Positions 24,936 to 49,198 of a DNA stretch of 64,000 nucleotides are shown here, in pieces (positions within the stretch are counted from its first letter, which is position 1; every line of letters begins with the position of its first letter). A program made the translations under genes and the position numbers. The stretch is from a phage. The stretch lies in sequence record PZ445530.1; one strand, given 5' to 3'. The notes under the pieces were generated by a model that searched no databases, was not told the origin of the DNA, and saw only the letters and a program-made list of their open reading frames with translations.

Positions 24936-24939
24936 TGTG

Positions 24940-25155: not shown

Positions 25156-25276
25156 GAAATCTCCTCTGGAAATGAGAGTGTGAACAGGGTTTTATACGTT
25201 CCGATGCACAGGAATTATGCACGTTTGCCTCTTCAGGCCATGCTTTAGCATGAGGAACCTGTGTGGGCTCGGTGCT

Positions 25277-33010: not shown

Positions 33011-33282
33011 AATCTAGGCTCCTTAAATGAATCTATGTAATCAATTAAATCCCAAACATCGCGATGGGCTGTCAGAGGGTATACTTCTCCGAGAGGGATC
33101 ATAGCAATAAGTCTATCAAAAACCCAGTCTGGACGCAACATTTTATGGTGATATTCCCACTCACCTTCCACAGATTTTTTCTGAGTGATCAGGATCTCTG
33201 TGTAGTGTTTCGCCTGTCTTGAGTAGATTGAAAATGACTTGTACATAAATGACCCCCTCTTGTTGAAAACAACAATACACAA
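33007..33282 (-). CDS. hypothetical protein
   Basis: ORF. Confidence 0.45.
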   Translation of the reverse strand: MCIVVFNKRGSFMYKSFSIYSRQAKHYTEILITQKKSVEGEWEYHHKMLRPDWVFDRLIAMIPLGEVYPLTAHRDVWDLIDYIDSFKEPRL

Positions 33283-33597
33283 CTACCAGGTTACTGTCAA
33301 GTAGGCAACCGTATTATTTTTCTCTGGGGAGATGCCAACAACATCTACCTGCAGACCTCCTGCCCTTAAATCTCCAACAATGTGCGGGAAGTAATCTGAG
33401 AGATGCGAGGGTAGATTTATCGAAAATCCGCACCCCAGAAAGCCTGCTAACGCTTTATTTTGTATCTCCCCCACAATCGAATCATAAATGGAGTTAAGCT
33501 CGTCAGGGAGCGTTACAGGACGTTTTAGCGCTAACTGGTGTAATTTGTCCTTAGCACTCATTTTCATTTCAGGTCTACCTCTGGTGGTGCCAACCAC
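33283..33597 (-). CDS. hypothetical protein
   Basis: ORF. Confidence 0.45.
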   Translation of the reverse strand: MVGTTRGRPEMKMSAKDKLHQLALKRPVTLPDELNSIYDSIVGEIQNKALAGFLGCGFSINLPSHLSDYFPHIVGDLRAGGLQVDVVGISPEKNNTVAYLTVTW

Positions 33598-34097
33598 ATA
33601 AATGGCGGCAAGCCTAAACGGTTTTTCTTATCCCACACAAAATATGCATATGCTTGCCCGTCAGTTCTGCCATTTGATTGAAAAGATGGACGCTTAGATA
33701 TTGTGATCACAGAGGTAGGTGCATTATCAAGCCACCATTCAAATCTGGCTTTGCTTTCCAGAAAATTAAGACGCAAAAGCATAATAACTACGTCAGCATC
33801 TTTCAACGCCTTGTCTACAAACTCACGAGCCAAACTGTATGGTGGGTTGGTGATAATACAGTCAACATGGTTGTATTCTGTATTCAGATAGTCAACACCT
33901 TCTTGGATTTCTCCCCATGCAGATCCTAACGGCATACGGGAGTAGAACACACCTGAGGCACTATTCCTGCAAGGCTCTAAGTAGGTCCAGTCTTCTGGGA
34001 ACGGAATAAGGTCATACAGCCCTTCTGCACACCACTCCGGTGTCACATACTCATCGTAAGCGTTACGTTGTTCATCAGGTTTTCTAGCACAAGTCAT
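33564..34097 (-). CDS. DNA N6-adenine methyltransferase (NPPY type)
   Basis: Catalytic motif DCIITNPPYS. Confidence 0.7.
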   Translation of the reverse strand: MTCARKPDEQRNAYDEYVTPEWCAEGLYDLIPFPEDWTYLEPCRNSASGVFYSRMPLGSAWGEIQEGVDYLNTEYNHVDCIITNPPYSLAREFVDKALKDADVVIMLLRLNFLESKARFEWWLDNAPTSVITISKRPSFQSNGRTDGQAYAYFVWDKKNRLGLPPFMWLAPPEVDLK

Positions 34098-34148
34098 GCA
34101 AATCTCCAGATCATAAAAGCCCTCCGAAGAGGGCTTTAGAATTAATGT

Positions 34149-35195
34149 TTAAGCTTCTTCGACAATTCCTGCACCCAGGATTTTTTCATTGAGCTCTTTT
34201 GCTGTTTTAATAATATTGTCCACCAGACGCTTGCGAGTCTTATCTTTTACCTTAACCTCTTCACCGCCGTTCAGGGTTGTCTTCAATTGGGACAGAATGT
34301 CTTGAAGTTCAACGACAGAGAATCGCTGCAGATCTTCTGAGGTAATCTCACCTAAGGCAATCTTAATGGTCTCACCACTTTCCATCTGCAGATTTAGGAA
34401 CACAGTGTGAACATCACCTTTCGAACCAACCGCTTTCGCAGATTCAACAGCATGAACTAGCTCATCTAAAGAGGTGCACTGGTGAATCTCAGGAAGACCT
34501 GCTTCACCTAACACGCCTTCATCACCTTTTGCCAGAAGCTTTTTAGGTTTTTGTCCGTTCTGGATGCGCTGTATGTTACCTTCATCCAGAATGATGGCTC
34601 CAGTTCGAGCTGCCAGCTCCTCTCCGTCCAACCACACTTCACCACCAGCTGTGATGGATGCGATCTCATCTTCTGTCAGCACCCCACCGTAGTATTTTTC
34701 GATCAGGCGTTCAAAACGTTTTTTCCAGTAGCTGACCTGAGTATTCATGTTCACACCGTTACCATAAGTGCCACCTTGATAGTAGTGGAACATAAATTCT
34801 GTGTCCGGAGCCACAGTGCGTTCTTTACAACCCAGCCATAAGATTGTTCCCGCAGAGCAGCACATCCCTTCAGCATGTGCAACAACGCTTGCCTGAGACT
34901 CGCGGAATGCCTGCAGATAAGCCATTGCAATGTGCACGCAACCACCAGGGCTATTGATGATCACCCGAATGCTTTCTTCCGGCTGAGCCATACGGATCGT
35001 CTGCAGACGAGACATATGATCCTGCAGGTCTTCCAAATCGTCGATATAAAGAACGTGGTCAACAACAGGTGTTGGGTAGCTGTATGTTTCCATGATACCG
35101 CCCGGCATACCAAACATTTTATTACTCATAGGTTCGAAACCGTTCTGTTTTTCTTTCATGCCGTGTACCATGGTGCTGCGAGGTGTTAAATTCAT
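34149..35195 (-). CDS. ClpP-family serine protease with C-terminal extension
   Basis: ClpP-like INSPGG and catalytic-Ser region GMCCSAGT. Confidence 0.65.
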   Translation of the reverse strand: MNLTPRSTMVHGMKEKQNGFEPMSNKMFGMPGGIMETYSYPTPVVDHVLYIDDLEDLQDHMSRLQTIRMAQPEESIRVIINSPGGCVHIAMAYLQAFRESQASVVAHAEGMCCSAGTILWLGCKERTVAPDTEFMFHYYQGGTYGNGVNMNTQVSYWKKRFERLIEKYYGGVLTEDEIASITAGGEVWLDGEELAARTGAIILDEGNIQRIQNGQKPKKLLAKGDEGVLGEAGLPEIHQCTSLDELVHAVESAKAVGSKGDVHTVFLNLQMESGETIKIALGEITSEDLQRFSVVELQDILSQLKTTLNGGEEVKVKDKTRKRLVDNIIKTAKELNEKILGAGIVEEA

Positions 35196-35255
35196 GAGAA
35201 ATCCTTAATATTGGAAGTTGAAAGCTATTTATTTAAACCTGATTCACATTTACCT

Positions 35256-35627
35256 TTATTTAGCAATCACTATGGAATACTTACGATTGTCAGAAGCATC
35301 ACAACTCAATGATTGCCAGTCTACCACATACCACGTATCATTGTCAACAATTACTTTATCGCCTGTTCTGTAGCAAGTGCTGCTTTCAATAATTCGAGAC
35401 TCGATAAAGAATCTGTGTCGGCGCTCACGTAGCAACGCTAAGTTAATTATATTACCACCGCTGTCCTTGGTCCACACATTCTTGGATCCTTTATTTGCCA
35501 AAATTGTCTCGCCGTTATAGACAAACAGGCAGTATATTTTATTCAATCTCTCTTGTATTGTAGCCATACTGTCCTTCTCTTTGTTTTGTCCGATAATAAT
35601 ATCTAAAGCTTGCCTATTTGTCAACAA
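35256..35627 (-). CDS. hypothetical protein
   Basis: ORF. Confidence 0.4.
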   Translation of the reverse strand: MLTNRQALDIIIGQNKEKDSMATIQERLNKIYCLFVYNGETILANKGSKNVWTKDSGGNIINLALLRERRHRFFIESRIIESSTCYRTGDKVIVDNDTWYVVDWQSLSCDASDNRKYSIVIAK

Positions 35628-35668
35628 CTGTTTTAGATATTTAAGGGTGGAATAACCACCCTTCTATA

Positions 35669-36457
35669 TTACTCGGAAACAGGGGTCCAAATATGATTTG
35701 CACGATCCTCAATAAGATTGAGTGCGATCTGACGACCCAACCCGGAACGAACGACATCGTCTGGACTATCAAAGCTGATCATTCCAACCTCAGGATCTGG
35801 ATGACGAGTAAAGAAATCCGTCACCCATGCAAGTCCAGATTTACCAGGGATGTCACGTTGGCTATTATCCCCCATAATTACAAGGGTGGCCTGATCAGAG
35901 ATCCTTGTGATAATTGACAACATTTCTTCAGGGTTAGTTTGCTGTGCCTCGTCAATCAGGACAAAGCATCGCTCATCGAAACTACGACCACGAATGCTTT
36001 CAACTTCACAAATCTCGATACGGCTGTTCTGACCGTCTCCCAGCATTGCGGCAAAAGCACCTTTGCCAACACGGCGACAAATCGTGTCCATCATGCTTCG
36101 AAGATAGGGCCACAGTTTCTGCATTGCATTTCCAGGTTTAAATCCTGAAGTCTTCCCTGTCTGAACGTAAGGGCGTGCAACAATGATCTTATCAATCTCG
36201 TTCTTACGCAGAAGATCACCTGCATATGCAGATGCCATGAATGTCTTACCGGATCCAAACACACCGTTTACAATAATAATCTTACGTGACCCTAGATAAT
36301 CAAGGTACTTTTGCTGCTTTTTATTCATTGGTCGGAGAGCTGGAGCGGTGTGCTCTCTTTCGTCAGCAAATTTCTCAGCAGCCTTACGCAGGCGATCAGA
36401 TTTGCGAGCCTCTCTAGCTTCATCACGCATGCGTTTTGTTTCTTTAGCTCGACCCAT
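35669..36457 (-). CDS. phoH: PhoH-like ATPase
   Basis: Walker A GVFGSGKTF; Walker B-like FVLIDEAQ; typical PhoH length. Confidence 0.85.
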   Translation of the reverse strand: MGRAKETKRMRDEAREARKSDRLRKAAEKFADEREHTAPALRPMNKKQQKYLDYLGSRKIIIVNGVFGSGKTFMASAYAGDLLRKNEIDKIIVARPYVQTGKTSGFKPGNAMQKLWPYLRSMMDTICRRVGKGAFAAMLGDGQNSRIEICEVESIRGRSFDERCFVLIDEAQQTNPEEMLSIITRISDQATLVIMGDNSQRDIPGKSGLAWVTDFFTRHPDPEVGMISFDSPDDVVRSGLGRQIALNLIEDRANHIWTPVSE

Positions 36458-36495
36458 GTTGGGACTCCTTTCAGATTGAGATGTGCCAAGTACTT

Positions 36496-36846
36496 TTACT
36501 GCAACAGTTTTTCAATAGCCGCTTCCATGCTGCTTGCAACAGCCTGAACTCGGATATTCATCTCTTCTTGGTGGATCAGCTCCTTAAGCTCTTTAATGGT
36601 AAATTCTTTAGAGAAACCTTCCACCATAATCTTGTGCAAGGCTTCTTGCGTGTCTACTTGCAAGAACTTTTCCAGTTTGTTGGCAGAGGCTTCTAAATCA
36701 GCCCGAATACGAGGGTCATCTGTGCGATTCAGCATTAGGCGTAAGCCATCAAGATTAGTAGAAATAGCATCTGCATGTTGAGTAACTAACCGTGGCAAAA
36801 TGAGATCTACAACCTTATTAGCCAAATCGATACGTTCTTGTGTCAC
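36496..36846 (-). CDS. hypothetical protein
   Basis: ORF; GTG start overlaps upstream stop (GTGA). Confidence 0.45.
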   Translation of the reverse strand: MTQERIDLANKVVDLILPRLVTQHADAISTNLDGLRLMLNRTDDPRIRADLEASANKLEKFLQVDTQEALHKIMVEGFSKEFTIKELKELIHQEEMNIRVQAVASSMEAAIEKLLQ

Positions 36847-36956
36847 TGTTGCACCCCCTCTTCATCTTCATGATGTTTCTTTTCACGCTTGTGTTTTTTC
36901 TTAAGCTCAAGCGCAATCTCTTTCTTGTACGCCTTCTTCAAGGCTTTTTTAGCCAT
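36843..36956 (-). CDS. Small basic protein (37 aa)
   Basis: SD gaggagg 6 nt upstream; Lys-rich MAKKALKKAYKK. Confidence 0.35.
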   Translation of the reverse strand: MAKKALKKAYKKEIALELKKKHKREKKHHEDEEGVQQ

Positions 36957-37020
36957 TTGGCACCTCCTCTGCTTTCATTTTACGATAATTATACCTATCT
37001 ACACCAAGCTTTGTCAACAA

Positions 37021-37494
37021 CTAGTCTACCTGAACCCAACCGCCTGCTACTTTTTTAAACATTCTTTGGTTATCGCTGCCTCGGAACGGTTTCTTGGTTG
37101 GTAAATCTTTTACATACTTACCGTCAATGATGATATCAGCCAGTTTAAGAACATCACTAGAGATATGGTCAAATGTGAACCCAGTATATACAAGAATAGT
37201 TTTCTTGTCACCAAATTTTTCCTTAATTTTCTCCATCAGGCTAATAATACCTGGCTCATTATAGTATGCTAAGGGTTCTCCACCCAGCAGAGAGATACCG
37301 CACACAGACGGGTTATCCAGATCTGACAAGATTTTTTGCAAATCTTCTTCAGTGAACTCCCTCCCCTTATCTTTTGACCAAAATGCCTGATTAAAGCAAC
37401 CAGGGCAAGCGTGTGGGCACCCAGATACCCACAAGGCAGTTCTAATACCTGGCCCTTCTGTGTAAGATACTTCTGTGTATCCGACAATGTTCAT
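37021..37494 (-). CDS. nrdG: Anaerobic ribonucleotide reductase activating protein
   Basis: Radical-SAM CPHACPGC motif; adjacent to nrdD. Confidence 0.8.
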   Translation of the reverse strand: MNIVGYTEVSYTEGPGIRTALWVSGCPHACPGCFNQAFWSKDKGREFTEEDLQKILSDLDNPSVCGISLLGGEPLAYYNEPGIISLMEKIKEKFGDKKTILVYTGFTFDHISSDVLKLADIIIDGKYVKDLPTKKPFRGSDNQRMFKKVAGGWVQVD

Positions 37495-37523
37495 AGATAC
37501 TCCGTATCACATTTAGGGCAATG

Positions 37524-37607
37524 TCAAATAAAATCGTCTAGTGCCTTGCACCAACGAAGATTGCAACGACAACCACACTTGCAAATTTTATAAATACCTG
37601 TAGACAT
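37524..37607 (-). CDS. Cys-rich micro-ORF (27 aa) between nrdD and nrdG
   Basis: Strong SD aggagg 6 nt before ATG; sequence MSTGIYKICKCGCRCNLRWCK. Confidence 0.35.
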   Translation of the reverse strand: MSTGIYKICKCGCRCNLRWCKALDDFI

Positions 37608-37670
37608 ACTGTACCTCCTAGCCCACTGTGTGTCAATAATATGCCACATCCTTGTGGCTTTTGTCAAGTA

Positions 37671-39794
37671 TCAGCAACTACAACTTCCATAGTGCTTAAC
37701 TCGCTCGATAACTTCCGCTTGCTTACCTTTATTGTAAGGACGGGAGTTAGGACTGGAAAGGTATCCAGACACTCTTCGGATCACTGAGATATATTGTTCA
37801 TCGTGGCATCCGCACGCAGGGCAGCAGAACCCTTTAGCTGTTGCACTGAACTCACCAGAGAAACCACACTTGAGACATTTATCTACAGGTTGGTTAATAC
37901 CAAAATACATAATGTGTTTATACCCGAAGTCAACAAGAGCCTCTAAAGCATCCAGGTTGTTTTTCAGGTTAGGTGTCTCTACGTATCCGATGTTGCCACC
38001 AGAGGAGATCATAGCAAAACCTTCCTCATACTCCCACTTATCAAAAGGAGAGCTATTTATCCATACTGGCTGATGGAAACTGTTGGTGAGATATTCATGC
38101 TCGTGCTTCAACACTTCCGGATATTCACGATCCAGACAGGTTGCAGCTTTATAGCATAGACTCTCAGAAGGAGTGCCGTACAAGCTAAACGCTAGTCTAC
38201 TTTCCTTCTTGTATCGCTCACAAGCATCTCTCATGTGCTGAAGGATTCCAAGAGCTAAAGCCTTGTCACCCTCTCTACCCAAAATCTGACAGGTTTCATA
38301 CACACCAATATACCCAATACTGATGGAAGCGTACCCGTCATAGAAGAGTTTATCAATACTCTCTTCAGGATCCAGGCGAGCAAGAGCTCCTTCACACCAC
38401 ATGATGGGGTTCTGCCCTGCCTTTGTTCCTTTTAGACGGTTAACCCTTACAAGGTGAGCCTCGTATGCAAGATCCAAGTATTCGTCAAGAACTGCAAAGA
38501 AATCAACACCTTCCGTCTTAGCTTTTGCCGCAATCATTGGCAGGTTAAGGCTAACAACGCCTAAGTTAAATCTGCCAAGGTATTTCTCCTCGCCTGTTTC
38601 CAAGTCATTGTATTTGCTAAGAAAACTCCTGCAACCCATGCTAGTTACTTTGCCATCTGTCGAGCCTGTCACTTTTCTATTTAGTGGTACAGATACGAAG
38701 TCAGGATAGATACGTTCTGCACAGCATTCCAGAGCTAATCGTTTCAAATCATAGTTAGGATCCCCAGGGTTCATGTTGACACCCTCTTCCAGGAAGAACA
38801 GCACTTTAGGGAACACAGGTGTGATACGTTCTTCACCAAGACCCATTTTGTGGACTTTCAAGTAGTTTTTGGTAATCATTCTACCAAAGACCGAGGTATC
38901 CAGCCCTAAACTTAATGTTATGAATGGAGTTTGCCCGTTGACAGAGGTTAACGTATTGATTTGATAGAGCAAAGTCTGCATGCTGTCAAATACGTCTTTA
39001 TCTGTCATTTGCATTGCAACAGTCTCAGCATCTGGCAACCAATGTTCCTGGCAAAATTTAAGGTTCTTCTCATAAGTTGCTTCAGCATATTGTGCCAGAT
39101 AATGATCAATATGGCTCATAGTCTGACCACCATATTGAGCACTAGCTACCGCACTAGAGATTTGGCTAAGGATTGTTGTTGCAACCCCTATTGACTTCGG
39201 CTTACTGACATGGGCGTTACCAATGTTGAATCCGTTTTCCAACATATCTGGATAATTTACCAAACAACAGTTTGTTAACGGACTGATCAAGTAGTCAAGA
39301 TCATGCACATGGATGAATCCTTTATTGTGCTCTTCGGAGACACGGTCTGGCAGGATCTGTGTTGATGCAAGGTGTTTGCTAAGAATACCTGCAAGCAGGT
39401 CGCGATGAGTGTGTACATGATTAGTAGGCTTATTTGCGTTTTCTTTTGTAAATTCATCACAAGTTCGATCCAAGAAGCCACTAATATCTGCAAGCAGTTT
39501 TCCACCTGCCTCTCTGTTATTATCTCTTGTCTGTCTATACTGGATGTATTCTCTGGCTGCACATTTTAAACCCATATCCATAAGAGCATCTTCAACAAGG
39601 ATATGGATATTTTTTACAGAGATCGTGCACTGGTCGGTTGGTAGATTGTTAGCAACAACTTCATTAACTGCACAAGCTATCCGGTAAGCTTCTTCTTCAG
39701 TATGTCCAGACTCAAGTAAGGCGGACTCTGCCGCCTTGATCACCTTAATTCCGTTATAAAACTCTTCTCTACCGTCCCGTTTTACAACTTTCAC
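37671..39794 (-). CDS. nrdD: Anaerobic ribonucleoside-triphosphate reductase
   Basis: C-terminal glycyl-radical motif RVSGY; C-terminal Zn ribbon CLKCG..CPACG; about 700 aa. Confidence 0.9.
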   Translation of the reverse strand: MKVVKRDGREEFYNGIKVIKAAESALLESGHTEEEAYRIACAVNEVVANNLPTDQCTISVKNIHILVEDALMDMGLKCAAREYIQYRQTRDNNREAGGKLLADISGFLDRTCDEFTKENANKPTNHVHTHRDLLAGILSKHLASTQILPDRVSEEHNKGFIHVHDLDYLISPLTNCCLVNYPDMLENGFNIGNAHVSKPKSIGVATTILSQISSAVASAQYGGQTMSHIDHYLAQYAEATYEKNLKFCQEHWLPDAETVAMQMTDKDVFDSMQTLLYQINTLTSVNGQTPFITLSLGLDTSVFGRMITKNYLKVHKMGLGEERITPVFPKVLFFLEEGVNMNPGDPNYDLKRLALECCAERIYPDFVSVPLNRKVTGSTDGKVTSMGCRSFLSKYNDLETGEEKYLGRFNLGVVSLNLPMIAAKAKTEGVDFFAVLDEYLDLAYEAHLVRVNRLKGTKAGQNPIMWCEGALARLDPEESIDKLFYDGYASISIGYIGVYETCQILGREGDKALALGILQHMRDACERYKKESRLAFSLYGTPSESLCYKAATCLDREYPEVLKHEHEYLTNSFHQPVWINSSPFDKWEYEEGFAMISSGGNIGYVETPNLKNNLDALEALVDFGYKHIMYFGINQPVDKCLKCGFSGEFSATAKGFCCPACGCHDEQYISVIRRVSGYLSSPNSRPYNKGKQAEVIERVKHYGSCSC

Positions 39795-40069
39795 TTTTTC
39801 TCTCCAAAACCATTCTTAACAAAAGAGATGAAATCGTCTGCACCGCCTATATGGACACTGTCAAGATCGCTTTCTAAGAAGATCTGCGGCAACGTTCTGG
39901 GGACGATTGGACTACACTTCTCAATAAGCTCTTCTTTTGTGTAGCCCTCGCCAAGTGTCTTATATACAAAAGGCAGACCTTTGCTGATTGCAAATTCTTT
40001 TGCTCTGACACAATGTGGGCAGTTATCCTTACCGTAAATGATGATGAAAAAAGATTTTTCGCAGCTCAT
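39791..40069 (-). CDS. nrdH: Glutaredoxin-like protein (NrdH-like)
   Basis: Redox motif CPHC near N-terminus; about 90 aa; between nrdB and nrdD. Confidence 0.7.
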   Translation of the reverse strand: MSCEKSFFIIIYGKDNCPHCVRAKEFAISKGLPFVYKTLGEGYTKEELIEKCSPIVPRTLPQIFLESDLDSVHIGGADDFISFVKNGFGEKK

Positions 40070-40072
40070 ATA

Positions 40073-41161
40073 TTAAAACTCCCAAATTTCTTCTTCAGCG
40101 TCGTTAACAGTTGTGTTGACGCGGTAGTCAGTGTTCGACATTTCTTGGTTCGCCGTCTGTTGCAATGAAGGTTTCATCCACACCTGCATAAACGGTAGCG
40201 GGTCCTTTGTTGGCGGCACAAAGTCTTTGTCGATGTCGTAGTAATCATAAATCGGTGAGCAGTTATAGTCAACCCACTCTTTAAGCAACGGTGAGTTAAG
40301 ACCTATAATCGCTCTTCCTTCGCTGAAAATATAGTCACTCCAGCCGTACTCTTTGGTTCGTACTTCATCAAGAATCTCTTTTAACTCCCCCTTTATCTCA
40401 AGGAAGCTTTTCTCCCATGCGGGATCATTAAGCAAGATATCAATGATGGCAAAATCACCTTTCGAATGTAGCATTTCGTCAAGCATGATTTTTTGAACAA
40501 GCTGCGCCACCTGAACAAAGATACCCTGTTCAGCTACTGCGAAAGTGCATGCAAAACTTGCAATAAACTCAATACTTTCCAGAGCTAAAAGTGCAAAAAG
40601 CGCTCTAAGAATGCATTTCCGCACAACATCTTCTTCAACACTAGAAGGATCCAGTCGGTATTTTGCACCAATAACCTCAAGCTCTTGCATGTATTTGACA
40701 ATAACTCCGGATCTGCTCAGAACGTTTTGGTTTTCCTGAATCTCTTCTATAATCTCACGGGCATTAGGGAGGCATTGTCTAACAATCTCTGAGTAAGTTA
40801 GTGCGTGAAGAACTTCAATCTCTGACTGTTTCATCAATAGAGTGAAAAGCTCACTATTAGTGATGAATGGTGAAAAGAGGCAGATGATCGATCTTGCCGC
40901 AACGCTATCAGCCTCCCATTGCCACATCAAGGTCTGCACCATCACGTCATAAGTTGACTTTGAGCATGTTACAAAATCTGAAATAGATTGCGACAAATCC
41001 ACTTCATCCTCTGCCCAATCTTGCTCTTTTTGTTTTTTGTATAGTTCAAACAGTTGTGGATATTTTTTGTTGATAGAGTCGTACATACCCATTTGCTGTC
41101 CCAGAAACAGCGGATAGTCACCAGTTTTATGAGCGGTGTTCTCAGCATTAAATACAGCCAT
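40073..41161 (-). CDS. nrdB: Ribonucleotide reductase class Ia small subunit
   Basis: N-terminus resembles E. coli NrdB; start moved to MAVFNAEN with SD agaggtag; next to nrdA. Confidence 0.85.
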   Translation of the reverse strand: MAVFNAENTAHKTGDYPLFLGQQMGMYDSINKKYPQLFELYKKQKEQDWAEDEVDLSQSISDFVTCSKSTYDVMVQTLMWQWEADSVAARSIICLFSPFITNSELFTLLMKQSEIEVLHALTYSEIVRQCLPNAREIIEEIQENQNVLSRSGVIVKYMQELEVIGAKYRLDPSSVEEDVVRKCILRALFALLALESIEFIASFACTFAVAEQGIFVQVAQLVQKIMLDEMLHSKGDFAIIDILLNDPAWEKSFLEIKGELKEILDEVRTKEYGWSDYIFSEGRAIIGLNSPLLKEWVDYNCSPIYDYYDIDKDFVPPTKDPLPFMQVWMKPSLQQTANQEMSNTDYRVNTTVNDAEEEIWEF

Positions 41162-41199
41162 TATTCTACCTCTAAAATGGGGCCGAAGCCCCTTTAAAA

Positions 41200-43515
41200 T
41201 TATAGTGCACAGCTTTCGCAATACGGATCTTCAACTGAACTATCTGCAATCAAAGGATAGTTCTTTCTGGTTTCATCTTCAGCCTGTTTCTTGGCATGAA
41301 GTTCCTCTGCCAAGGAGTCACCAGCACCAACCCTAGAGTTTAAATAATACCATGTCTTCATCCCGAATTTAGTGGCACGGATAAGGTACCCTAACTGCTC
41401 CTTCATTGAAATTTTACCATCTTTCAACTTGGTGTAGTCTATGTATAAATCCGCGCTGATTGCCTGACCTGTGAATTTTTGAATCACGGCATACATATCG
41501 ATCATGTCGTTAGTATCAACGTCCCAAGCCGAGGTGTAATACTCTTTCAACTCATCATAGTCAGGAACGATAAACAGCACCTGCCCTTGTGGCGACTTTT
41601 TAAAGATAATGTGCTCACGGACAGGATAAACCCCGTTAGTGGTGTTTGTTGCCAGCGAAGAGCTTTCATTAGGCATATATGCTTCAAGAACGCTATTACG
41701 TAGCCCACCATTCTCAATGATTTCTTTACGTAACCCTTCCCAATCCTGTTTAAGAGAAGGATCTTTCACCACGCTATCGACCTCTTTGTTATAGGTGTCG
41801 ATTGGTAACCAACCTTCTGGATATTTTGTTTTATGCATCCACTCGCAGACACCACGCTCTTTTGCCAACCGTAAACTTGCCTTATGCAAGCTGTAGCTGT
41901 GAAGTTCTGCAAGATCGTGAACGAGCTGTTTACTTTCAGGAGACCCGTAAGTAACCTTGTGGCTGGCAATAAAATGTGCAACATTGGTAAGGCCAACCCC
42001 GATGGATCTGCGTTTTTTAACTGTGCTTTCCATATTTTCATACGGATATGTCATGATTTCCATAACATTGTCAATCATAAGCACCGTGTAGTATGCAACA
42101 TCCTCATACTCCTCTGGAGTAACCCTTCCAGCTACAAGAGATGACAGGAAGCACAATGCAACCTCTCCATCATCAGCATCGTACTTGAAGATATTACGCA
42201 TATCTGAATAGCCTTTTGTCGGGAGGGCTATTTCTGCACACAGGTTACTTGAATAGATCACATCTTTAAAAGGTGTATGTCTATTCATCTCATCTGTCCA
42301 GTATACATACAGCCTTCCCACCTCAGTACGCTGCGTGATCAGTTCAACAGCAAGATCTCTGGCTCGGATCCATGTTTTAGGAATACTGTCATCTTTAGCA
42401 ATACGCTCAACCTCTGCATCGAACTCCTCCATAGACATGGTGAAGATACCCTCATGCAGTTGAGGAGCGTGCTTATAAGAAACAAGCATCCAATCTAAAT
42501 TCTTAGCCACACGGTTGATAAACGACCTATTAATACCGATGGAGTAGTCCATGGTGTTGATTCTTTTTGAAGCAACAGTCATAGGGTTTCTCAAACGGAT
42601 TAGCTCATCAATCTGCGGGTCCAGTGCAAGGAATGATACTGTTGCAGAACCGCCACGTGATTGTTGTCTGTTCTCCTTAACACCAGCATCAATACCTCGA
42701 TAATATGGAATCTTACCCATATGTTTAATAGTGTTACCACGAACACCATCGCCTGCAGATCTTGAGGATAAGTAGTAGCCGATACCTGCTTGGTTAACCG
42801 TCATTGTGTACGCAACTTCACGTGCCACACCAATAGATTTTGCTGTATCGTCAGCTTTTATTACACAACAAGATGCATACCCTGTCTTACCTGTGCGCAG
42901 CCCGTTTAAGTACGGTGTCGGGGCATTGATCTTTAAGTCGGACAGATAAGTGTATAATTTTACAACATCGTTGATACGACGTTCTTTCGGCATATTCTTC
43001 ATGACAGCCATTGCTATCCCCATAAACATCATCTGGGGAGATTCAAACAAGGTGTCTTTAAGAGTATCCTTGATCCCGTATTTGTCGCGAAACTGTTTAA
43101 GGACTGCATAGCCATAACCGAGATCTTTACTGTGGTCAATAACAGCGTCTAAAGTGTTTAGCTCGGTAAAGCTATAACCCATATCCTCCCAATAACCTTT
43201 CTCAACCATGTCATTGTAAAATGATGGTAAGGAAGGGATCTTTGTAAACCCTCCAAAAGCCTCTTTATAGATCTGACCAATAAGAACACGACCAGCCATA
43301 CGGGAATGTGCTTCGTCTTTACGGCTAACACAAGAGTCTATAATAGCTTGGTTAACTTCTTTGGTTGTACATCCATCATACAACCGCTTGTAGGCATCCA
43401 GTGCAATATGTGACCAATTGCCGTTACCATCGTCACCGAAAATAGCTGCCTTATTTAAACGTTCTGGATCGAATGCTACTTCACATCCGTTGCTTTTAAT
43501 TACCTTGGTGATCAA
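41200..43515 (-). CDS. nrdA: Ribonucleotide reductase class Ia large subunit
   Basis: N-terminal ATP-cone; C-terminal CESCAL redox cysteines; about 770 aa. Confidence 0.9.
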   Translation of the reverse strand: MITKVIKSNGCEVAFDPERLNKAAIFGDDGNGNWSHIALDAYKRLYDGCTTKEVNQAIIDSCVSRKDEAHSRMAGRVLIGQIYKEAFGGFTKIPSLPSFYNDMVEKGYWEDMGYSFTELNTLDAVIDHSKDLGYGYAVLKQFRDKYGIKDTLKDTLFESPQMMFMGIAMAVMKNMPKERRINDVVKLYTYLSDLKINAPTPYLNGLRTGKTGYASCCVIKADDTAKSIGVAREVAYTMTVNQAGIGYYLSSRSAGDGVRGNTIKHMGKIPYYRGIDAGVKENRQQSRGGSATVSFLALDPQIDELIRLRNPMTVASKRINTMDYSIGINRSFINRVAKNLDWMLVSYKHAPQLHEGIFTMSMEEFDAEVERIAKDDSIPKTWIRARDLAVELITQRTEVGRLYVYWTDEMNRHTPFKDVIYSSNLCAEIALPTKGYSDMRNIFKYDADDGEVALCFLSSLVAGRVTPEEYEDVAYYTVLMIDNVMEIMTYPYENMESTVKKRRSIGVGLTNVAHFIASHKVTYGSPESKQLVHDLAELHSYSLHKASLRLAKERGVCEWMHKTKYPEGWLPIDTYNKEVDSVVKDPSLKQDWEGLRKEIIENGGLRNSVLEAYMPNESSSLATNTTNGVYPVREHIIFKKSPQGQVLFIVPDYDELKEYYTSAWDVDTNDMIDMYAVIQKFTGQAISADLYIDYTKLKDGKISMKEQLGYLIRATKFGMKTWYYLNSRVGAGDSLAEELHAKKQAEDETRKNYPLIADSSVEDPYCESCAL

Positions 43516-43742
43516 TTTGCTTCCTCCACTTCACTAACGTATTTATCAAGGCAGGTATCAGTATCTTGCTGGATAAAAGTATCCTCTTCTACAGAGATAT
43601 TTATAATTTTACCTGTATACTCGTCATAATAGACATCATCATACATTTTAATATCGTTTGTCAGGCCATTGAACCAAAGCCAACCAACATACTCTGCCCG
43701 ACTTGCAAAACCAAGATCCTTCCACTTGGAGTTATGACTCAT
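43512..43742 (-). CDS. hypothetical protein
   Basis: Start moved to MSHNSKW with SD aaggtgg. Confidence 0.4.
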   Translation of the reverse strand: MSHNSKWKDLGFASRAEYVGWLWFNGLTNDIKMYDDVYYDEYTGKIINISVEEDTFIQQDTDTCLDKYVSEVEEAN

Positions 43743-43752
43743 CTTCACCACC

Positions 43753-44253
43753 TTAGCTTTCAATACCGAATAATTTTTCCAGGCGATGCAGATCTTCAAA
43801 ATTGAAAGGTTCATCAACAATATGAATATCTTCAGCCTTTTCAGATTGTTTTGTATACTTTCTTACATTAACACGATCCTCTACAGGGATATCATACGGG
43901 AGATCTTGAACAAGCATTGCCTCACCAGGTGCTTTATCTACATCTAAAATATCTACACCGTTATACATTTGTGGGTATCTAAAGTCTGCACGCATGACAC
44001 CAGCAAATACATCTGCCTTTCGATAATGTGTTGGCTTATTTTTGCATCGAACGTTTTTTCCACGAAGAACATCAATACTTTTTAAATCAAACCCTACGGC
44101 AAAGAGTGCAGCTCGGAGACCGTTTCGTGTGCGAACGTTAAACCCGGGGACGGTAGATAGAAAATCTAAAGTAACTGAAATAAATGTCTTTTTAGGAATC
44201 ATAACATTACTCATATCTGTCTCCATTTCTGGCTCACCAACAAAGTGAGCCAT
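43753..44253 (-). CDS. hypothetical protein
   Basis: ORF. Confidence 0.45.
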   Translation of the reverse strand: MAHFVGEPEMETDMSNVMIPKKTFISVTLDFLSTVPGFNVRTRNGLRAALFAVGFDLKSIDVLRGKNVRCKNKPTHYRKADVFAGVMRADFRYPQMYNGVDILDVDKAPGEAMLVQDLPYDIPVEDRVNVRKYTKQSEKAEDIHIVDEPFNFEDLHRLEKLFGIES

Positions 44254-44312
44254 TATTATAGATTATCTAATACTATTAGTCAACACAAAAGTTACCTATC
44301 GCTGTGATAGGA

Positions 44313-45296
44313 TTAACCTTTCACGAAGTGGTTATTAAGCAGTTGTCTGTGCTGAACCCACCCACAAAAGTTGGCAGACCAGAATTTACCATCACGGTCT
44401 TGATGGGTTACACCTTCCTGCCAAGTACTGATGTCTTGTGTGATTTCACATGAAGACAGGTAGTAGTTTAAACGTTCCATTGCATTATCGTGATCCATAG
44501 GTGTTGCCTGGTGCTCGTAAGGGCTTGCATGAATACGATCCCCACCAATCAATTTTTTAGCAACACTATCTGCCTTTTCAAACGTGCTGTCAATATTTCG
44601 ATAAGATACTTGTGCACAGCAACTAGCACTGATAGACAGAGCTTCTTTAGTATCGAGAATGCAAAGCTTTCCTTCTGTGTCACGTACAGCGTAGTTAAAC
44701 TCTCCGTCCAAATAAACGTGCTCTACATATGGGGTGTGCCATTGACCCGGTTTAAGGATTTCAGGAGTGCTATTCTCAAGAGCCTCCCACATACAATTAG
44801 CTAACATCTGAATCGTAGGATCCGCATCGTGCCAGCAACGGAGGTGGAAAAAATTATTCCACTCGGTGCTTGTTACAACTGTTTTCATGCGCTGGAACGG
44901 CTCCACTAAGCGGTTACATACTTGCTTATGGTAACCAGCAAGGGCGAACTTCTCTGCATGCCAAGCGGCGTTTTTTGCAGCTTCTTTCCAAAACTCTTCA
45001 GGAGTTAGCTCCATGTCAGTGTACTCTACACGGATCTTTTGATCGTGTTCCCCACCATCTTCCATTCCTCGCTTATTTACACCGAAGCGAACTGGCATTG
45101 CCGGATTCTCCACAATCTGTTGCAGCATCTTGCCGACAGGTACTGCACGGGAAGACATGGCGTTTCTGCTGAACACTCGGTGCGTCATAAGCTCTGAGTG
45201 AATAATTCGAGGATACTCTAGTTCAAAAGTGGTGATACGCTTACCTTTCTCGGAAATGCTGTCAGCAATAATCTTTGCAGTGCACAGTTTTAGCAT
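44313..45296 (-). CDS. thyX: Flavin-dependent thymidylate synthase (ThyX-like)
   Basis: ThyX-type signature variant THRVFSRNAMSSRA (RHR-x7-S pattern); location in nucleotide-metabolism cluster. Confidence 0.6.
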   Translation of the reverse strand: MLKLCTAKIIADSISEKGKRITTFELEYPRIIHSELMTHRVFSRNAMSSRAVPVGKMLQQIVENPAMPVRFGVNKRGMEDGGEHDQKIRVEYTDMELTPEEFWKEAAKNAAWHAEKFALAGYHKQVCNRLVEPFQRMKTVVTSTEWNNFFHLRCWHDADPTIQMLANCMWEALENSTPEILKPGQWHTPYVEHVYLDGEFNYAVRDTEGKLCILDTKEALSISASCCAQVSYRNIDSTFEKADSVAKKLIGGDRIHASPYEHQATPMDHDNAMERLNYYLSSCEITQDISTWQEGVTHQDRDGKFWSANFCGWVQHRQLLNNHFVKG

Positions 45297-45496
45297 TATT
45301 TAGCTCTCCTTGTTTTAATTTTGGAAATTTCGTCTGGGTTTATGTTGGCCTTAAATGCAAGGTATCTGTTGAACATGTCAGAGCACATATCTTGGGTGAT
45401 CCTAGAGGCATACACTAGCTTACCTCCTAGATCATACACCTCTAGCCAGTCACCATATCTGACTACAGGATCGCCACCTTTAGAACATCTGCCCAT
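45296..45496 (-). CDS. hypothetical protein
   Basis: ORF. Confidence 0.4.
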   Translation of the reverse strand: MGRCSKGGDPVVRYGDWLEVYDLGGKLVYASRITQDMCSDMFNRYLAFKANINPDEISKIKTRRAK

Positions 45497-45497
45497 T

Positions 45498-46091
45498 TCA
45501 AATACCTTCTAAAAATTTTCCTATTTTATACCAGCTATTAGCGGTATAGTCAACACTGACCTTTAACTCCTCGAATTGCTCATAAGGCGTATCTTTTAGG
45601 ATTTTAATAACTTCAGGTCGTGAAGCGAATTGGTTCAGGTATTCATGCCTGTCGTCAATTATAACATCTACAGCCACATTCCCTTTGAAATGTGTGGCGT
45701 AGAAGCCGTGGCCCTGGGTGTGGTCGTCCAGATCCATAAAATCACTGGTCCAACGCTTTAAGAACCTTGATTTAGATGCAAGGTGACCTTTCTTGCATAC
45801 CGAGATAAATGCAAGCTTGTGACCACGAGCCACCAAATCTTTCATAACCTCAATAGCCCCCTCTTCAGGCTTAAGGAAGTCGTAGAGGAACGGATCACTC
45901 CAGAAATCAAAAGGTCCTATGATGTTTTCTTTGGGACGATCAGGCCAATACTTTGACAGATCGTAATACATTAGCCCATTAGAAGGTTTAGCTACTGTCT
46001 TACTGGCTGGACCATACAAACGCTCCAACCACTCCCACCATGCTGTTCCTGAATCTACCAGTGTCAGATCTACATCAATTCCGATTAACAT
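45498..46091 (-). CDS. HAD-superfamily 5'(3')-deoxyribonucleotidase-like phosphatase
   Basis: HAD motif I IDVDLTL (DxDxT); downstream DVIIDDR motif. Confidence 0.6.
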   Translation of the reverse strand: MLIGIDVDLTLVDSGTAWWEWLERLYGPASKTVAKPSNGLMYYDLSKYWPDRPKENIIGPFDFWSDPFLYDFLKPEEGAIEVMKDLVARGHKLAFISVCKKGHLASKSRFLKRWTSDFMDLDDHTQGHGFYATHFKGNVAVDVIIDDRHEYLNQFASRPEVIKILKDTPYEQFEELKVSVDYTANSWYKIGKFLEGI

Positions 46092-46699
46092 TCTTCTTGG
46101 GCCTCTTTAACATCAATATACTTGCACACAATCTCCGATGCACACTCCCAAGGTGCACCTTCAGGGTTTACAACATCAAACTCAACCCCTTTTATTCCGT
46201 TCTTTTCCAGACTTAGATAGGTTCTGGAATCATTTCCCCAGTCATATCCTACACGGTGAATACGGAACAACAACAGATCTCCACCTGTGCTGTATGCGTA
46301 CTCGCTAAGGCATGCCAGCTCCTCTTTGAATCCCCCATCGGAGTAAACAATAACCCCTTTACCTTCAGGGAAATCTTTCTTCAAAGATGCGACTGCGGCT
46401 TTACCGAAAGCATCTTCACCAAAGATAGGTTTAATCAGATTTTCACTACAATGGATCATCCATTCTCGCGGAGAAACATGCTTGCCGTCTATCATTAAGA
46501 AAGGGCAAGGCTCTTCTTTGTAGTGGCGGTCATAAAGTGCATTCCAGAGTTGAGGAGTTACACCAGCTGCCTTAATTGCCACACTGAAGAGCATTTCCTT
46601 AACCTCACGGTGGTGTGAGTTAGGAATAGCTTCCAACAAGAGATCTGCAATGTGATCCTTACCACTGCTGGGTGGGGCGTTAAGAACAATAATATCCAT
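46085..46699 (-). CDS. Deoxynucleoside monophosphate kinase (T4 gp1-like)
   Basis: N-terminal P-loop IVLNAPPSSGKDHIAD resembling T4 dNMP kinase. Confidence 0.6.
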   Translation of the reverse strand: MDIIVLNAPPSSGKDHIADLLLEAIPNSHHREVKEMLFSVAIKAAGVTPQLWNALYDRHYKEEPCPFLMIDGKHVSPREWMIHCSENLIKPIFGEDAFGKAAVASLKKDFPEGKGVIVYSDGGFKEELACLSEYAYSTGGDLLLFRIHRVGYDWGNDSRTYLSLEKNGIKGVEFDVVNPEGAPWECASEIVCKYIDVKEAQEEC

Positions 46700-46902
46700 T
46701 AAAAACCTCCGTGGTATTCTTCAACTGCATCAATAATACTTTTACACTTATCTACCAGCTCGTTAGCCACTACAGCATCGTCTTCCCAAACAGCCTCCTC
46801 AATCTGATCAAGCAATGATCGCATCTTACTCATCATTTCTGGGATAAAGTTTTCTGAAAAGCTGTCTGGAATTGTTAACTCTAGTGTCATTTCGGTCTCC
46901 AA
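46699..46902 (-). CDS. hypothetical acidic protein
   Basis: ORF. Confidence 0.4.
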   Translation of the reverse strand: METEMTLELTIPDSFSENFIPEMMSKMRSLLDQIEEAVWEDDAVVANELVDKCKSIIDAVEEYHGGF

Positions 46903-46917
46903 TCATACTATGCGTTA

Positions 46918-47376
46918 TTAGAAGTTTGTTTTTACACGTCCCTTCTCATCAACCTCGTTGTTAGCTAAAAGCGTTACAAAGTCTGTGAAACGAACATGAA
47001 GAACCCTTTTCTTATCAAGGTATCCTAAAGCCACCCCTGAGAAATTTAGCATCAAAGGGGCTAAAGAAGCTCTGGCACTGAAATGCTGTTGTTCTACCCT
47101 TCCAACACCCTTAGTGTAGGATGGGTTAAGATTGTAAGTTCTGAATCCCAGTTTTGTTGGAGCTTTAGAATTAAAAACGACTTTATAGCGTTTCTTACTC
47201 AACTTATGCTCCAGGATAAGCATTCCCTTATCACCTTTGATAAGTTGAAAATCTGTAAAGTGCTCTTTTAAGACGAAAGGTAGTGCCAGTCCCATCGCCT
47301 GTCCTCTTTGTACCGCTGTCTCACCAAAAGCTTTTGCATCAGTAAGTTCTTTGGTCAAGTCTATGCTTTTGATCAT
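46918..47376 (-). CDS. hypothetical protein
   Basis: ORF; SD ggaga upstream. Confidence 0.45.
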   Translation of the reverse strand: MIKSIDLTKELTDAKAFGETAVQRGQAMGLALPFVLKEHFTDFQLIKGDKGMLILEHKLSKKRYKVVFNSKAPTKLGFRTYNLNPSYTKGVGRVEQQHFSARASLAPLMLNFSGVALGYLDKKRVLHVRFTDFVTLLANNEVDEKGRVKTNF

Positions 47377-48187
47377 ACCTGGTCTCCAAAATGTATTGTA
47401 GTTCTTTCTTACCTATACTCTTCATTCCAGCAGTCTTACCTGCTTCTTCTTGAAAAGAAGAATAGCATTCAGCAAACACTCTGTCAACACCGTTAACTAA
47501 AGATTTTATGAAATATGTTGATTCTTCAGATTTTGGGTCATCATCCCCCAATACTTTTCCAGCATTATACCCAACACGTCTTACACAGAAGTCGTAGTCA
47601 TCTGGTGTGCTAAAAGAAAATAACTTATTCTCTCCAATCTCTACAGGATCCCTATTGCACGCCTTTTTCTCCCAAATTTGGAAAACACATGGCACGTCAT
47701 AAGGTTTGCCATTAAGTAAAAACGAATTCTTAGGGCACCTTTCGCTGTAGACAAGGTGCATCGACATGTCCAGTTTGTTTGCAAAAAATATTTTTTCAAA
47801 TGTCCGTGGCAAGATGAAGGCTATAGCCCCTCCAAGCTCTAGCAATGATGCACAATGGTTAAAGAATTTGCAAGCTAAGGATGAATTCTTGCCAAATGGT
47901 GGGTTACCTATGAAGACATCTGCCTTGGGATGCACCTCCAAGAAGTTTGCCTGAATGCACGGTGTTGGTCCTTCAAATTCAGGATCTGGTACTAAATCGT
48001 ACGACAGTATCTCTGAAAATAGTTTTGAAAAAGAACCCCTTCCAGCAGAAGGCTCAACGTATGCACAATTCCCATACTTATCTTTTACTTTACCAACAAG
48101 ATATTCTGCATACTCAGGGTTTGTGTAGTATTTGTCGTTGGACTCTTTCTTGCTCAAAGTGCCTCCAAAAGGAAAAGGGAGGCGCAA
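47339..48187 (-). CDS. DNA N6-adenine methyltransferase (NPPF type)
   Basis: Catalytic motif FIGNPPFG. Confidence 0.6.
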   Translation of the reverse strand: MRLPFPFGGTLSKKESNDKYYTNPEYAEYLVGKVKDKYGNCAYVEPSAGRGSFSKLFSEILSYDLVPDPEFEGPTPCIQANFLEVHPKADVFIGNPPFGKNSSLACKFFNHCASLLELGGAIAFILPRTFEKIFFANKLDMSMHLVYSERCPKNSFLLNGKPYDVPCVFQIWEKKACNRDPVEIGENKLFSFSTPDDYDFCVRRVGYNAGKVLGDDDPKSEESTYFIKSLVNGVDRVFAECYSSFQEEAGKTAGMKSIGKKELQYILETRYDQKHRLDQRTY

Positions 48188-48202
48188 GCCTCCCTATAAT
48201 TG

Positions 48203-49186
48203 TTAGATTATCTGAATCAGGGTATTTTTCATTTCTTCTCTGGTGCGGATGTTGTTACGGTCACGAACAACAGATCCACAACCTTCGCAGCGGTATGTTT
48301 TAAATGCACTCAGTTGAGTATACGCCAAAGCTTCTTCCTCGTGAAGGTGTTCTCCACCACAGCGTGGGCAACGAACTTTTGGCTCCTCATCCTGGTAGTA
48401 CAATGACATGTTGGGGTGCTGCTTAGCAAACGGGCGAGCCAGCAAATACAGGCCTTCCAGAGATAGGATATCGCCAACATTGTACTCCCGCATCTGTTTA
48501 AACGCCTCAAGATCACCGTGAACACACTTGATCCACATTTCAAATGTGTGGTCAATCAGTTTCTGTCGGGCAAGTTGGAAGTATTTGCATGCATACTCCA
48601 AAGTGTTTGCATTCAAACGGAATGCCTTCTTGATCATTTTAAGGGTGTCAACCTCTTTGTAGGGGCTTGTTGGAGGCAATCCGTGAAATGCAAATCGTTG
48701 GTTGGCCCACCCACAGTCAAAACCTGAATTGTGGGCTACTGCGACATCACATTTATCCAGATAATACCACAAATCCTGAATCAATTCGAGATCATTGTGA
48801 ATATCCTCATCCCACATTTTGTAATCAGGAAGAGCGCAGTCAACCACACTAGGACTGTCTAACCACTTACCTGCGAAAGTTAGCATGTAGGGCATAATTT
48901 CAATACCGCAGGTTTGAATGTTGGTCTTATAGTGCCCAAAGAACCAGCCGTTTGTTGGAGATGTCTCTGTATCATACACCCAAACTTTAGCACCTTTGTG
49001 CTCTTCAAGGAAGCGCTCCGTTGCTTCTCCTACAATCTCTGACATATTCTCTTGTGCACGTTTAAGCTGTAGTCGGATCCAGCTCTCACGTGACTCACGG
49101 CCTAAAAATTCACGAGCAATTTGTCTATTAGTGTATCCCTGTTGCTTTAGTGTTAAAATTTGCTCAAGAGTTAACTTTGTCATCAT
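48203..49186 (-). CDS. DEDD-family 3'-5' exonuclease with N-terminal HTH and C-terminal Zn ribbon
   Basis: Exo motifs VYDTETS, AHNSGFD, YNVGD; HTH-like QQGYTNRQIAREF; CPRCG...CEGCG. Confidence 0.55.
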   Translation of the reverse strand: MMTKLTLEQILTLKQQGYTNRQIAREFLGRESRESWIRLQLKRAQENMSEIVGEATERFLEEHKGAKVWVYDTETSPTNGWFFGHYKTNIQTCGIEIMPYMLTFAGKWLDSPSVVDCALPDYKMWDEDIHNDLELIQDLWYYLDKCDVAVAHNSGFDCGWANQRFAFHGLPPTSPYKEVDTLKMIKKAFRLNANTLEYACKYFQLARQKLIDHTFEMWIKCVHGDLEAFKQMREYNVGDILSLEGLYLLARPFAKQHPNMSLYYQDEEPKVRCPRCGGEHLHEEEALAYTQLSAFKTYRCEGCGSVVRDRNNIRTREEMKNTLIQII

Positions 49187-49198
49187 CGTTAAGATTCC

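Follow-up and report, generated by a model that had tools for sequence, protein, structure and literature searches.

Two solitary adenine methyltransferase genes of an rV5-like coliphage and their probable assignment to GATC and GTAC methylation

We examined 64,000 nucleotides of phage DNA (record PZ445530.1; the whole of this stretch is called the window below) for two genes, here named MT1 and MT2, that are predicted to encode DNA N6-adenine methyltransferases (Table 1). The 16.5 kb spanning both genes are 99.1% identical to Escherichia phage JeffSchatz (Bas55) and at least 98% identical to about 110 further rV5-like phages of the genus Vequintavirus; the window comes from a Vequintavirus, an rV5-like coliphage. 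More than 100 Vequintavirus genomes carry annotations of the two genes: in the JeffSchatz record bas55_0173 (MT1) and bas55_0193 (MT2) share one label, "putative N6 adenine methyltransferase", and RefSeq names them "DNA methyltransferase" and "SAM-dependent methyltransferase" (SAM, S-adenosylmethionine), respectively. For comparison we used the complete genome of Bas51, which taxonomy and locus tags identify as phage WalterGehring (MZ501111) and whose MT1 and MT2 proteins are 98.3% and 99.3% identical to those of the window. The explanation that we favour, at a probability of roughly 0.8, is that these genes encode two solitary, post-replicative adenine methyltransferases, of which MT1 acts on GATC and MT2 on GTAC.

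Table 1. Methyltransferase genes, their motifs and signals, and associated features (positions refer to the window unless Bas51 is named)
Feature	Position	Strand	Basis or remark
MT1, 177-aa DNA N6-adenine methyltransferase, predicted GATC-specific by orthology	33564..34097	-	ORF; phrog_799; Bas51 ortholog bas51_0176
MT1 motif IV, NPPY, aa 84-87	33837..33848	-	translation and family alignment
MT1 motif I (SAM-binding loop), EPCRNSASGVF	33945..33977	-	translation and family alignment
orf152, basic 152-aa protein (phrog_9938)	46918..47376	-	overlaps MT2 3' end by 38 nt
MT2, 272-aa gamma-class DNA N6-adenine methyltransferase, putatively GTAC-specific (bas55_0193; ortholog bas51_0200)	47339..48157	-	
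MT2 motif IV, NPPF	47894..47905	-	GNPPFG invariant in 34 family members
MT2 motif I, EPSAGRGSF	48029..48055	-	EPSAG.G.F invariant in family
MT2 Shine-Dalgarno sequence GGAGG and TTG start	48162-48166; 48155-48157	-	codons checked
Intrinsic-terminator hairpin after DnaQ-like exonuclease gene	48176..48195	-	GC-rich 8-bp stem, then T run; terminator scan
bas51_0070, 441-aa type III Mod-like beta-class enzyme (N6/N4)	Bas51 64456-65781 (L233 14456-15781)		PF01555, E 4e-42
bas51_0074, annotated Dcm-like C5 enzyme	Bas51 67042-67806 (L233 17042-17806)		no Pfam match

The open reading frame (ORF) that a sequence-only reading of the window had proposed as the first enzyme, with an NPPY motif, is present on the minus strand. 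Its ATG lies six bases 3' of a GGAG, and a hairpin follows the ClpP-like protease gene just upstream. The protein matches phrog_799, 'DNA methyltransferase', in PHROGs (E 5e-67), and all of 30 family members share T83, N84, P85 and P86. Motif I keeps E41, P42 and one glycine; relative to the family consensus EPCxGxG, the GxG is gone and two residues are inserted. MT1 falls below the membership thresholds of the established phage Dam models, scoring 18.8 bits against PF05869 (Dam; cut-off 28.1), in a weak alignment over the catalytic core, and 16 bits against TIGR01712 (phage_N6A_met; cut-off 97.05). A 94-aa ORF (phrog_12158; 33283-33567, minus strand) starts inside the MT1 stop codon through an ATGA overlap and is probably translationally coupled to it; this ORF adjoins MT1 only within the Vequintavirinae. 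We considered a conserved partner gene for MT1 and rejected it, as the neighbours are kept only within that subfamily and are different in other phages. Because the neighbours change in this way, we conclude that MT1 is truly solitary, and the term 'orphan' had been rightly applied to it.

The second enzyme had been placed at 47339-48187. The ORF and its NPPF motif are there, but the start is wrong: the TTG at 48187 lies in the loop of the terminator hairpin, whereas the TTG at 48157 stands 4 nt after a GGAGG, and these two observations together set the start of MT2 at 48157. The resulting protein of 272 aa is the one annotated in JeffSchatz, and the disorder of residues 1-14 in an AlphaFold2 (AF2) model of the 282-aa version fits the later start. 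MT2 matches phrog_5172 in PHROGs (E 4e-129) and, over its full length, the PADLOC methyltransferase model MTase_II PDLC03255 (E 3e-34). With these profile matches, both enzymes go beyond a fortuitous resemblance in motif. It lies outside the Pfam families Eco57I and N6_Mtase (15.5 bits against Eco57I, PF07669, where the cut-off is 25.3), and a scan of NCBIfam with MT2 gave no match. The motifs run in the order X-I-II-III-IV (YYT.P, EPSAGRGSF, D64, a DFL-type motif and GNPPFG), followed by three conserved C-terminal blocks, YDVPCVFQIW, RRVG..AGK and TAG..S..K.EL. In Foldseek searches the AF2 model (predicted local distance difference test, pLDDT, 90.8) matched M.TaqI, M.BseCI, CamA and type I M subunits with E-values of 1e-6 to 1e-7, in alignments that cover only the catalytic domain of about 190 aa at a template-modelling (TM) score of about 0.4; a search of BFVD returned only unnamed or uncharacterised viral proteins. 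From its motifs and modelled fold, MT2 is predicted to be a complete gamma-class adenine methyltransferase with an M.TaqI-like catalytic fold. Within the 3' part of the gene, about 80 nt upstream of the start of orf152, there is a near-consensus sigma-70-like site (TTGACA, 17 nt, TG-TATTCT; 47459-47487, minus strand); in sigma-70 promoter scans around MT1 and MT2, matches were no commoner than in shuffled sequence.

The sequence-only reading took the two enzymes to be of different motif types. This overstates the distance between them: the family profiles align in hhalign with a probability of 97.5% (E 6e-12), and the alignment carries the entire MT1 onto the N-terminal 170 residues of MT2. 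MT1 and MT2 are thus distant homologs, and MT2 consists of an MT1-type core with a conserved C-terminal extension of about 100 aa. Since the families are homologous, NPPY and NPPF represent a one-residue variation inside a single lineage.

Methylation of the DNA has been measured in Bas51 by Nakamura et al. (PLoS Biol 2025; PMC12548924), whose S4 table reports nanopore calling of N6-methyladenine (m6A). In wild-type Bas51, m6A was called at 1405 GATC, 509 GTAC and 576 other sites; in a T83P mutant the corresponding numbers were 35, 511 and 349 (PMC12548924). We counted 703 GATC and 258 GTAC sites in the Bas51 genome, equal to 1406 and 516 adenines, so that the published calls over the counted adenines correspond to 99.9% methylation of GATC and 98.6-99.0% of GTAC in virion DNA. 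Self-methylation of the genome at two adenine motifs, which had been proposed from sequence with methylation profiling as its check, had therefore already been measured in this sister phage: the published profile (PMC12548924) has m6A in virion DNA on about 100% of the adenines in GATC and about 99% of those in GTAC.

All Bas51 escapers of the retrons Asa1 and Squ1 were mutated in "the Bas51 N6 adenine methyltransferase", and engineered D69G, D79G and T83P phages escaped both retrons (PMC12548924). We found that only the MT1 ortholog, bas51_0176, has D, D and T at residues 69, 79 and 83; the same positions read Q, A and I in MT2 and C, G and E in the 441-aa enzyme bas51_0070. The MT1 ortholog is therefore the enzyme mutated in the retron escapers. 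Together, these results demonstrate that in Bas51 GATC m6A depends on the MT1 ortholog and GTAC m6A does not. GATC methylation is thus shown experimentally for a 98.3%-identical protein, and by orthology the MT1 of the window is predicted to methylate GATC as well. The ortholog is the trigger of both retrons, each of which has GATC in its non-coding RNA (ncRNA), and it is toxic when expressed alone (PMC12548924). The T83P phage, grown in E. coli, keeps only 2.5% of its GATC marks; if the host was Dam-proficient, which we assume and which is not stated in the paper (PMC12548924), then host Dam barely methylates phage DNA, and the failure of host Dam to service that DNA would be why the phage keeps an enzyme of its own. 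A second gene appeared among the retron escapers: the Bas51 ortholog of the 'putative glycosidase' bas55_0168 (window 31811-32344, minus strand, about 1.2 kb downstream of MT1) carried R87* in four of eight, and R87* alone abolished Retron-Asa1 defence (PMC12548924).

The MT1-independent GTAC m6A measured in Bas51 is, in our view, most probably made by MT2. To our knowledge E. coli K-12 has no GTAC methylase, its methylome being that of Dam, Dcm and EcoKI, and so the GTAC enzyme must be phage-encoded. The MT2 family has a patchy distribution: Sphingomonadales, Rhodobacterales, sponge symbionts, Bacteroidota, phages and many metagenome-assembled genomes (MAGs) of giant viruses. At 15 of the 59 bacterial loci and 18 of the 80 viral ones, in several orientations, the MT2 relative directly adjoins a protein of about 180-260 aa with an invariant D...SxK and a QRRLQCS block, which matches the PADLOC restriction endonuclease (REase) model REase_II PDLC03460 with E-values down to 1e-51. 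The MT2 family thus appears to behave as a methyltransferase family of type II restriction-modification (RM) systems, and the pairing with a type II REase family argues that its members are DNA enzymes acting at a short, probably palindromic site.

For the DNA around MT2-family genes, divided into four subsets, we calculated Markov observed-to-expected ratios (O/E) for the 16 palindromic 4-mers. GTAC was the most depleted of them in all four subsets, with O/E values of 0.50 in bacterial loci with the REase and 0.68 in those without, and of 0.29 and 0.38 in the corresponding viral loci, against 0.83 in control viral loci gathered via the MT1 family. Per-locus medians for the MT2-family sets were 0.32 and 0.66, compared with 0.85 in the control (p = 2.7e-13 and 1.3e-4), and GTAC ranked lowest of the palindromes in 28 of 71 viral MT2 loci versus 3 of 60 controls. 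Only one palindrome is avoided more strongly than GTAC by the phage itself (O/E of GTAC 0.59 in Bas51, 0.67 in the window), whereas GATC is not avoided in either (0.99-1.02). Depletion of GATC as a signature of the MT1 family was considered and discarded: no palindrome has a lower ratio than GATC in MT1 loci (0.79), yet in MT2 viral loci GATC stands at about 0.6, so that its depletion is not specific. A literature search for Vequintavirus together with GTAC returned no papers.

We suggest the following explanation. The phage would encode two distantly homologous, solitary DNA adenine methyltransferases that act after replication. MT1 would be a minimal Dam-like enzyme that marks essentially every GATC of progeny DNA, as shown for the Bas51 ortholog. 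MT2, a catalytic core with a C-terminal DNA-recognition extension of about 100 aa, would come from a type II RM methyltransferase family whose members in bacteria and giant viruses are often paired with a small REase, one that the phage MT2 either lost or never had; it would mark essentially every GTAC, in keeping with the methylation seen in Bas51. Lying in a replication and nucleotide-metabolism block, MT2 would probably mark nascent genomes as they are made. The most likely benefit would be immunity to GATC- or GTAC-directed, m6A-sensitive restriction in natural hosts, and the known cost is that MT1 activity is sensed by some retrons.

Several points weigh against this explanation. The methylation measurements come from Bas51 and not from the phage of the window; the Bas51 paper (PMC12548924) leaves the GTAC enzyme unnamed, and on genetic grounds bas51_0070 stays a candidate for it. 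The depletion test is correlative, and its control loci are not taxon-matched. Pfam and NCBIfam place neither MT1 nor MT2 above threshold, the top Foldseek match of MT2 is TrmN, a tRNA m6A enzyme, and some sources call MT2 relatives 'predicted RNA methylase'. Finally, a putative anti-restriction benefit has to be set against the high sensitivity of the genus to all six RM systems tried so far.

This last point comes from the BASEL study, which found the Vequintavirinae 'exceptionally susceptible' to RM systems in a panel of EcoKI, EcoCFT_I, EcoRI, EcoRV, EcoCFT_II and EcoP1_I. The only phenotype demonstrated for MT1, the triggering of retrons Asa1 and Squ1, is harmful to the phage (PMC12548924). 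The panel bears on the question only in part. As far as we know, none of the recognition sites of EcoKI, EcoRI, EcoRV or EcoP1_I contains GATC or GTAC, so that, judged by the four sites known to us, the panel never included GATC or GTAC restriction: the observed susceptibility excludes broad protection and does not address motif-specific protection. Judging from the strong avoidance of GTAC and the apparent RM ancestry of MT2, these phages seem to be under real pressure from restriction directed at GTAC. The protection given by GTm6AC would extend to GGTACC (KpnI-type) sites. The hexamer CGATCG, the PvuI site, is nearly absent: the window has 1 where 8.8 would be expected, and Bas51 has 1 where the expectation is 15.7. 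The remaining hexamers with GATC are close to expectation or slightly depleted, GGATCC for instance occurring 23 times in Bas51 for an expected 35.5. Because Dam-type methylation is not known to block PvuI, the scarcity of CGATCG looks like avoidance of a site at which methylation gives no help.

The marks might instead serve transactions of the phage DNA itself, such as control of replication or packaging, avoidance of MutH cuts at hemimethylated GATC, or gene regulation, an alternative that we regard as rather unlikely overall. In its favour, host Dam seems to leave GATC of the phage almost bare (35 of 1406 adenines are methylated in T83P), so that the phage would need an enzyme of its own for the mark, and GATC, in contrast to GTAC, is not avoided. 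Phages such as P1 have Dam-dependent packaging and regulation. On a retron-free host the titres of MT1 mutant stocks were lower by about 2-3-fold (PMC12548924), which is consistent with such a role, but MT1 point mutants are viable and plaque on E. coli K-12 (PMC12548924), and no methylation-dependent step is known in the genus. For MT2, the avoidance of GTAC and the RM ancestry point to restriction pressure.

Besides motif-directed immunity, a second use of MT2 can be conceived, in which it would protect the phage genome while a partner attacked other DNA. Neither enzyme was thought to have an adjacent restriction endonuclease, and for known families this holds: the neighbours have no nuclease or REase match in Pfam, PHROGs or PADLOC, and the REase family of the MT2 relatives (PDLC03460) has no match at E<=10 in a six-frame translation of the window or in the whole Bas51 genome. 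MT2 thus has beside it no cognate REase of the kind that a type II RM system would include. In that sense MT2 is an orphan; the word fails in another, since MT2 has a strictly linked partner, the 152-aa protein orf152.

Homologs of orf152 are rare, with five above threshold in 5.8 billion clustered proteins and five in 1.84 billion representatives, and every homolog with a readable neighbour adjoins an MT2-type gene. Searches begun from MT2 led to loci L064 (= L005), L070 and L119, each with an orf152 homolog beside the MT2-type gene; searches begun from orf152 led to three distant homologs (P0246, P0247 and P0248; loci L143-L146), each with a neighbouring gene that overlaps it by 8-23 nt and has 40-42% identity to MT2. 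Records of sequenced phages with the family number about 120 for Vequintavirus and 66 for Phapecoctavirus. Wherever coordinates of Phapecoctavirus records were compared, the orf152 homolog lies beside the MT2 homolog in an order reversed from that of Vequintavirus, and between the two genera the methyltransferases are 54% identical and the orf152 proteins 30%. This strict pairing is the one new lead of our analysis.

MT2 and orf152 could be imagined as a two-gene RM-like module, modelled on the chlorovirus R-M systems in which the methyltransferase protects its own genome: orf152 would be a small nuclease of new fold, or another DNA-directed effector, acting on GTAC-unmethylated DNA of the host or of rival phages. 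The pairing with an MT2-type gene, mostly in overlapping frames and in two gene orders, spans Vequintavirus, Phapecoctavirus and marine metagenomic phages; the same slot holds a recognised type II REase in MT2 relatives; the pair sits among genes of nucleotide salvage and synthesis; and orf152 is strongly basic (isoelectric point, pI, 9.95). The protein itself speaks against the module. An alignment of nine sequences leaves M1 (the start codon), P33, P85, S86, K89, G90, R93 and G146 invariant, several of them in a PSYTKGxGR block, and no invariant acidic or histidine residue. The motif argument for a PD-(D/E)xK nuclease was rejected because distant homologs do not keep D49...E56-H-K58 of the window protein. 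A diverged copy of the partner REase of MT2 relatives was rejected as well, since the two profiles align in hhalign with a probability of 0.1%. We found no functional family for orf152 in Pfam, NCBIfam, PHROGs-type libraries or PADLOC, and when PDB sequences were searched with profiles of orf152 and of the partner REase family, nothing was returned. An AF2 model built from a six-sequence alignment was poor (pLDDT 57), and Foldseek with this poor model found nothing in the PDB below E 0.1. Most MT2 relatives, moreover, work without orf152. We consider the module unlikely, and its specific form, in which orf152 (132-152 aa) is a GTAC-directed effector such as a nuclease or glycosylase that partners MT2 and replaces a classical REase in large coliphages, improbable.

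The count of two methyltransferases proved too low. Two further enzymes of Bas51, bas51_0070, with the layout LELTWIGK...DPPF...FGGSGTT, and bas51_0074, lie about 2-5 kb upstream of the point that corresponds to the window start and hence outside the window, so that the genus has four. Of these, bas51_0070 could in principle be the source of the GTAC mark, MT2 then acting on another target, either a DNA motif of the 'other' class or RNA such as tRNA. We think this improbable. In favour of the reading, bas51_0070 is a genuine DNA methylase of PF01555 (E 4e-42), TrmN tops the PDB fold matches of MT2, some of whose relatives are named 'RNA methylase', the phage has tRNAs of its own, and the T83P phage has its 349 'other' m6A sites outside GATC and GTAC. 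Against this, GTAC depletion follows the MT2 family through bacteria, phages and giant viruses, and a type II REase family is paired with MT2 relatives. Mod-like enzymes usually mark asymmetric sites of 5-6 bp on one strand. A 5-mer is expected about 275 times in 140 kb, which is of the right order for the 349 residual sites; given both points, bas51_0070 fits this residual class better than it fits a 4-bp palindrome.

That MT1 is an inactive relic, as its motif I (EPCRNSASGVF in place of EPCxGxG) and uniformly sub-threshold Pfam matches might suggest, is refuted by the Bas51 T83P data, in which a single point mutation of the 98.3%-identical ortholog removes 97.5% of GATC m6A, and sits badly with a gene conserved at 86-99.8% identity over 119 phage records with TNPP and other core residues invariant.

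Set beside known systems, MT1 most resembles the solitary phage Dam-type GATC enzymes (PF05869/TIGR01712; functionally the Dam proteins of T4, T1 and P1): it is likewise small and single-domain with a (D/N)PPY motif, has no partner nuclease, and shares with them the methylation of GATC in phage DNA, as shown for the Bas51 ortholog. It differs in scoring below the cut-offs of both models, in having a PHROG of its own (799) and in its degenerate motif I; from the classical alpha-class Dam it further differs in lying closer, by hhalign, to the M.TaqI-like lineage of MT2. Known GTAC adenine methylases are M.CviQI of chlorovirus NY-2A, M.HpyAXII and M.PabI, and RsaI cleaves GTAC only if it is unmethylated (PMC2588503). 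MT2 can be likened to these methylases through the gamma-class motif order and the M.TaqI-like catalytic fold, through GTm6AC on a phage genome (Bas51) and through the abundance of its relatives in giant-virus MAGs; its catalytic asparagine would lie near residue 85, as compared with N87 in M.HpyAXII. The differences are that M.HpyAXII has 331 aa and MT2 272, that the C-terminal domain of MT2 has no solved relative, and that the specificity of MT2 is deduced. With type II RM systems (PDLC03255 plus PDLC03460) MT2 shares an end-to-end match to the methyltransferase model, and its bacterial and giant-virus relatives adjoin proteins of the REase model; this phage, in the window, and Bas51 carry no REase homolog and have the unrelated orf152 in the slot, so that they possess no recognisable RM system. 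Retrons triggered by methyltransferases sense phage Dam-type activity via methylation of their reverse-transcribed DNA (RT-DNA), and the MT1 ortholog triggers Asa1 and Squ1; such triggering is a consequence of MT1 activity in retron hosts, whereas what the gene does for the phage is something else.

Some other features of the window and its relatives deserve mention. Window 33000-49500 also matches about 20 GenBank records titled 'Campylobacter phage' (MG0656xx, with C. jejuni as host), whose identity of about 98% to these Vequintaviruses of E. coli suggests mislabelled or contaminant genomes. The gene nrdD, for an anaerobic ribonucleotide reductase (37671-39794, minus strand), is intact here and carries an HNH/homing-endonuclease insertion in slur16 and Bas51, an insertion polymorphism inside the genus. 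A cluster of seven tRNA genes lies at 61306-62119 (plus strand); its 99-nt gene at 61775-61873 has a four-base anticodon (atcc) according to ARAGORN, and its counterpart by position in the Bas51 cluster bears a tRNA-Lys annotation. At the change of gene orientation from plus to minus, an ORF-poor stretch of about 2.4 kb (about 22900-25400) contains nested repeats, direct and inverted, with ATAGTTGCC as their basis (23100-23300), as well as a perfect 18-nt inverted repeat (23153-23170 / 23287-23304). This stretch could be an origin or a regulatory region. Bas51 has no annotation over the equivalent region.

That these phages have two such methyltransferases was already known: the genes are annotated, the methylation has been measured, and MT1 is genetically tied to GATC and to the retrons. 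Our analysis adds the assignment of GTAC to MT2, relates MT2 to a type II RM family and finds it strictly paired with orf152. Should orf152 prove to be an effector against GTAC DNA that lacks the mark, virulent phages would carry a minimal restriction partner of a new kind. For work on BASEL phages and retrons, our results indicate that the GTAC mark most likely comes from MT2, and that the genus carries four methyltransferases and not one.

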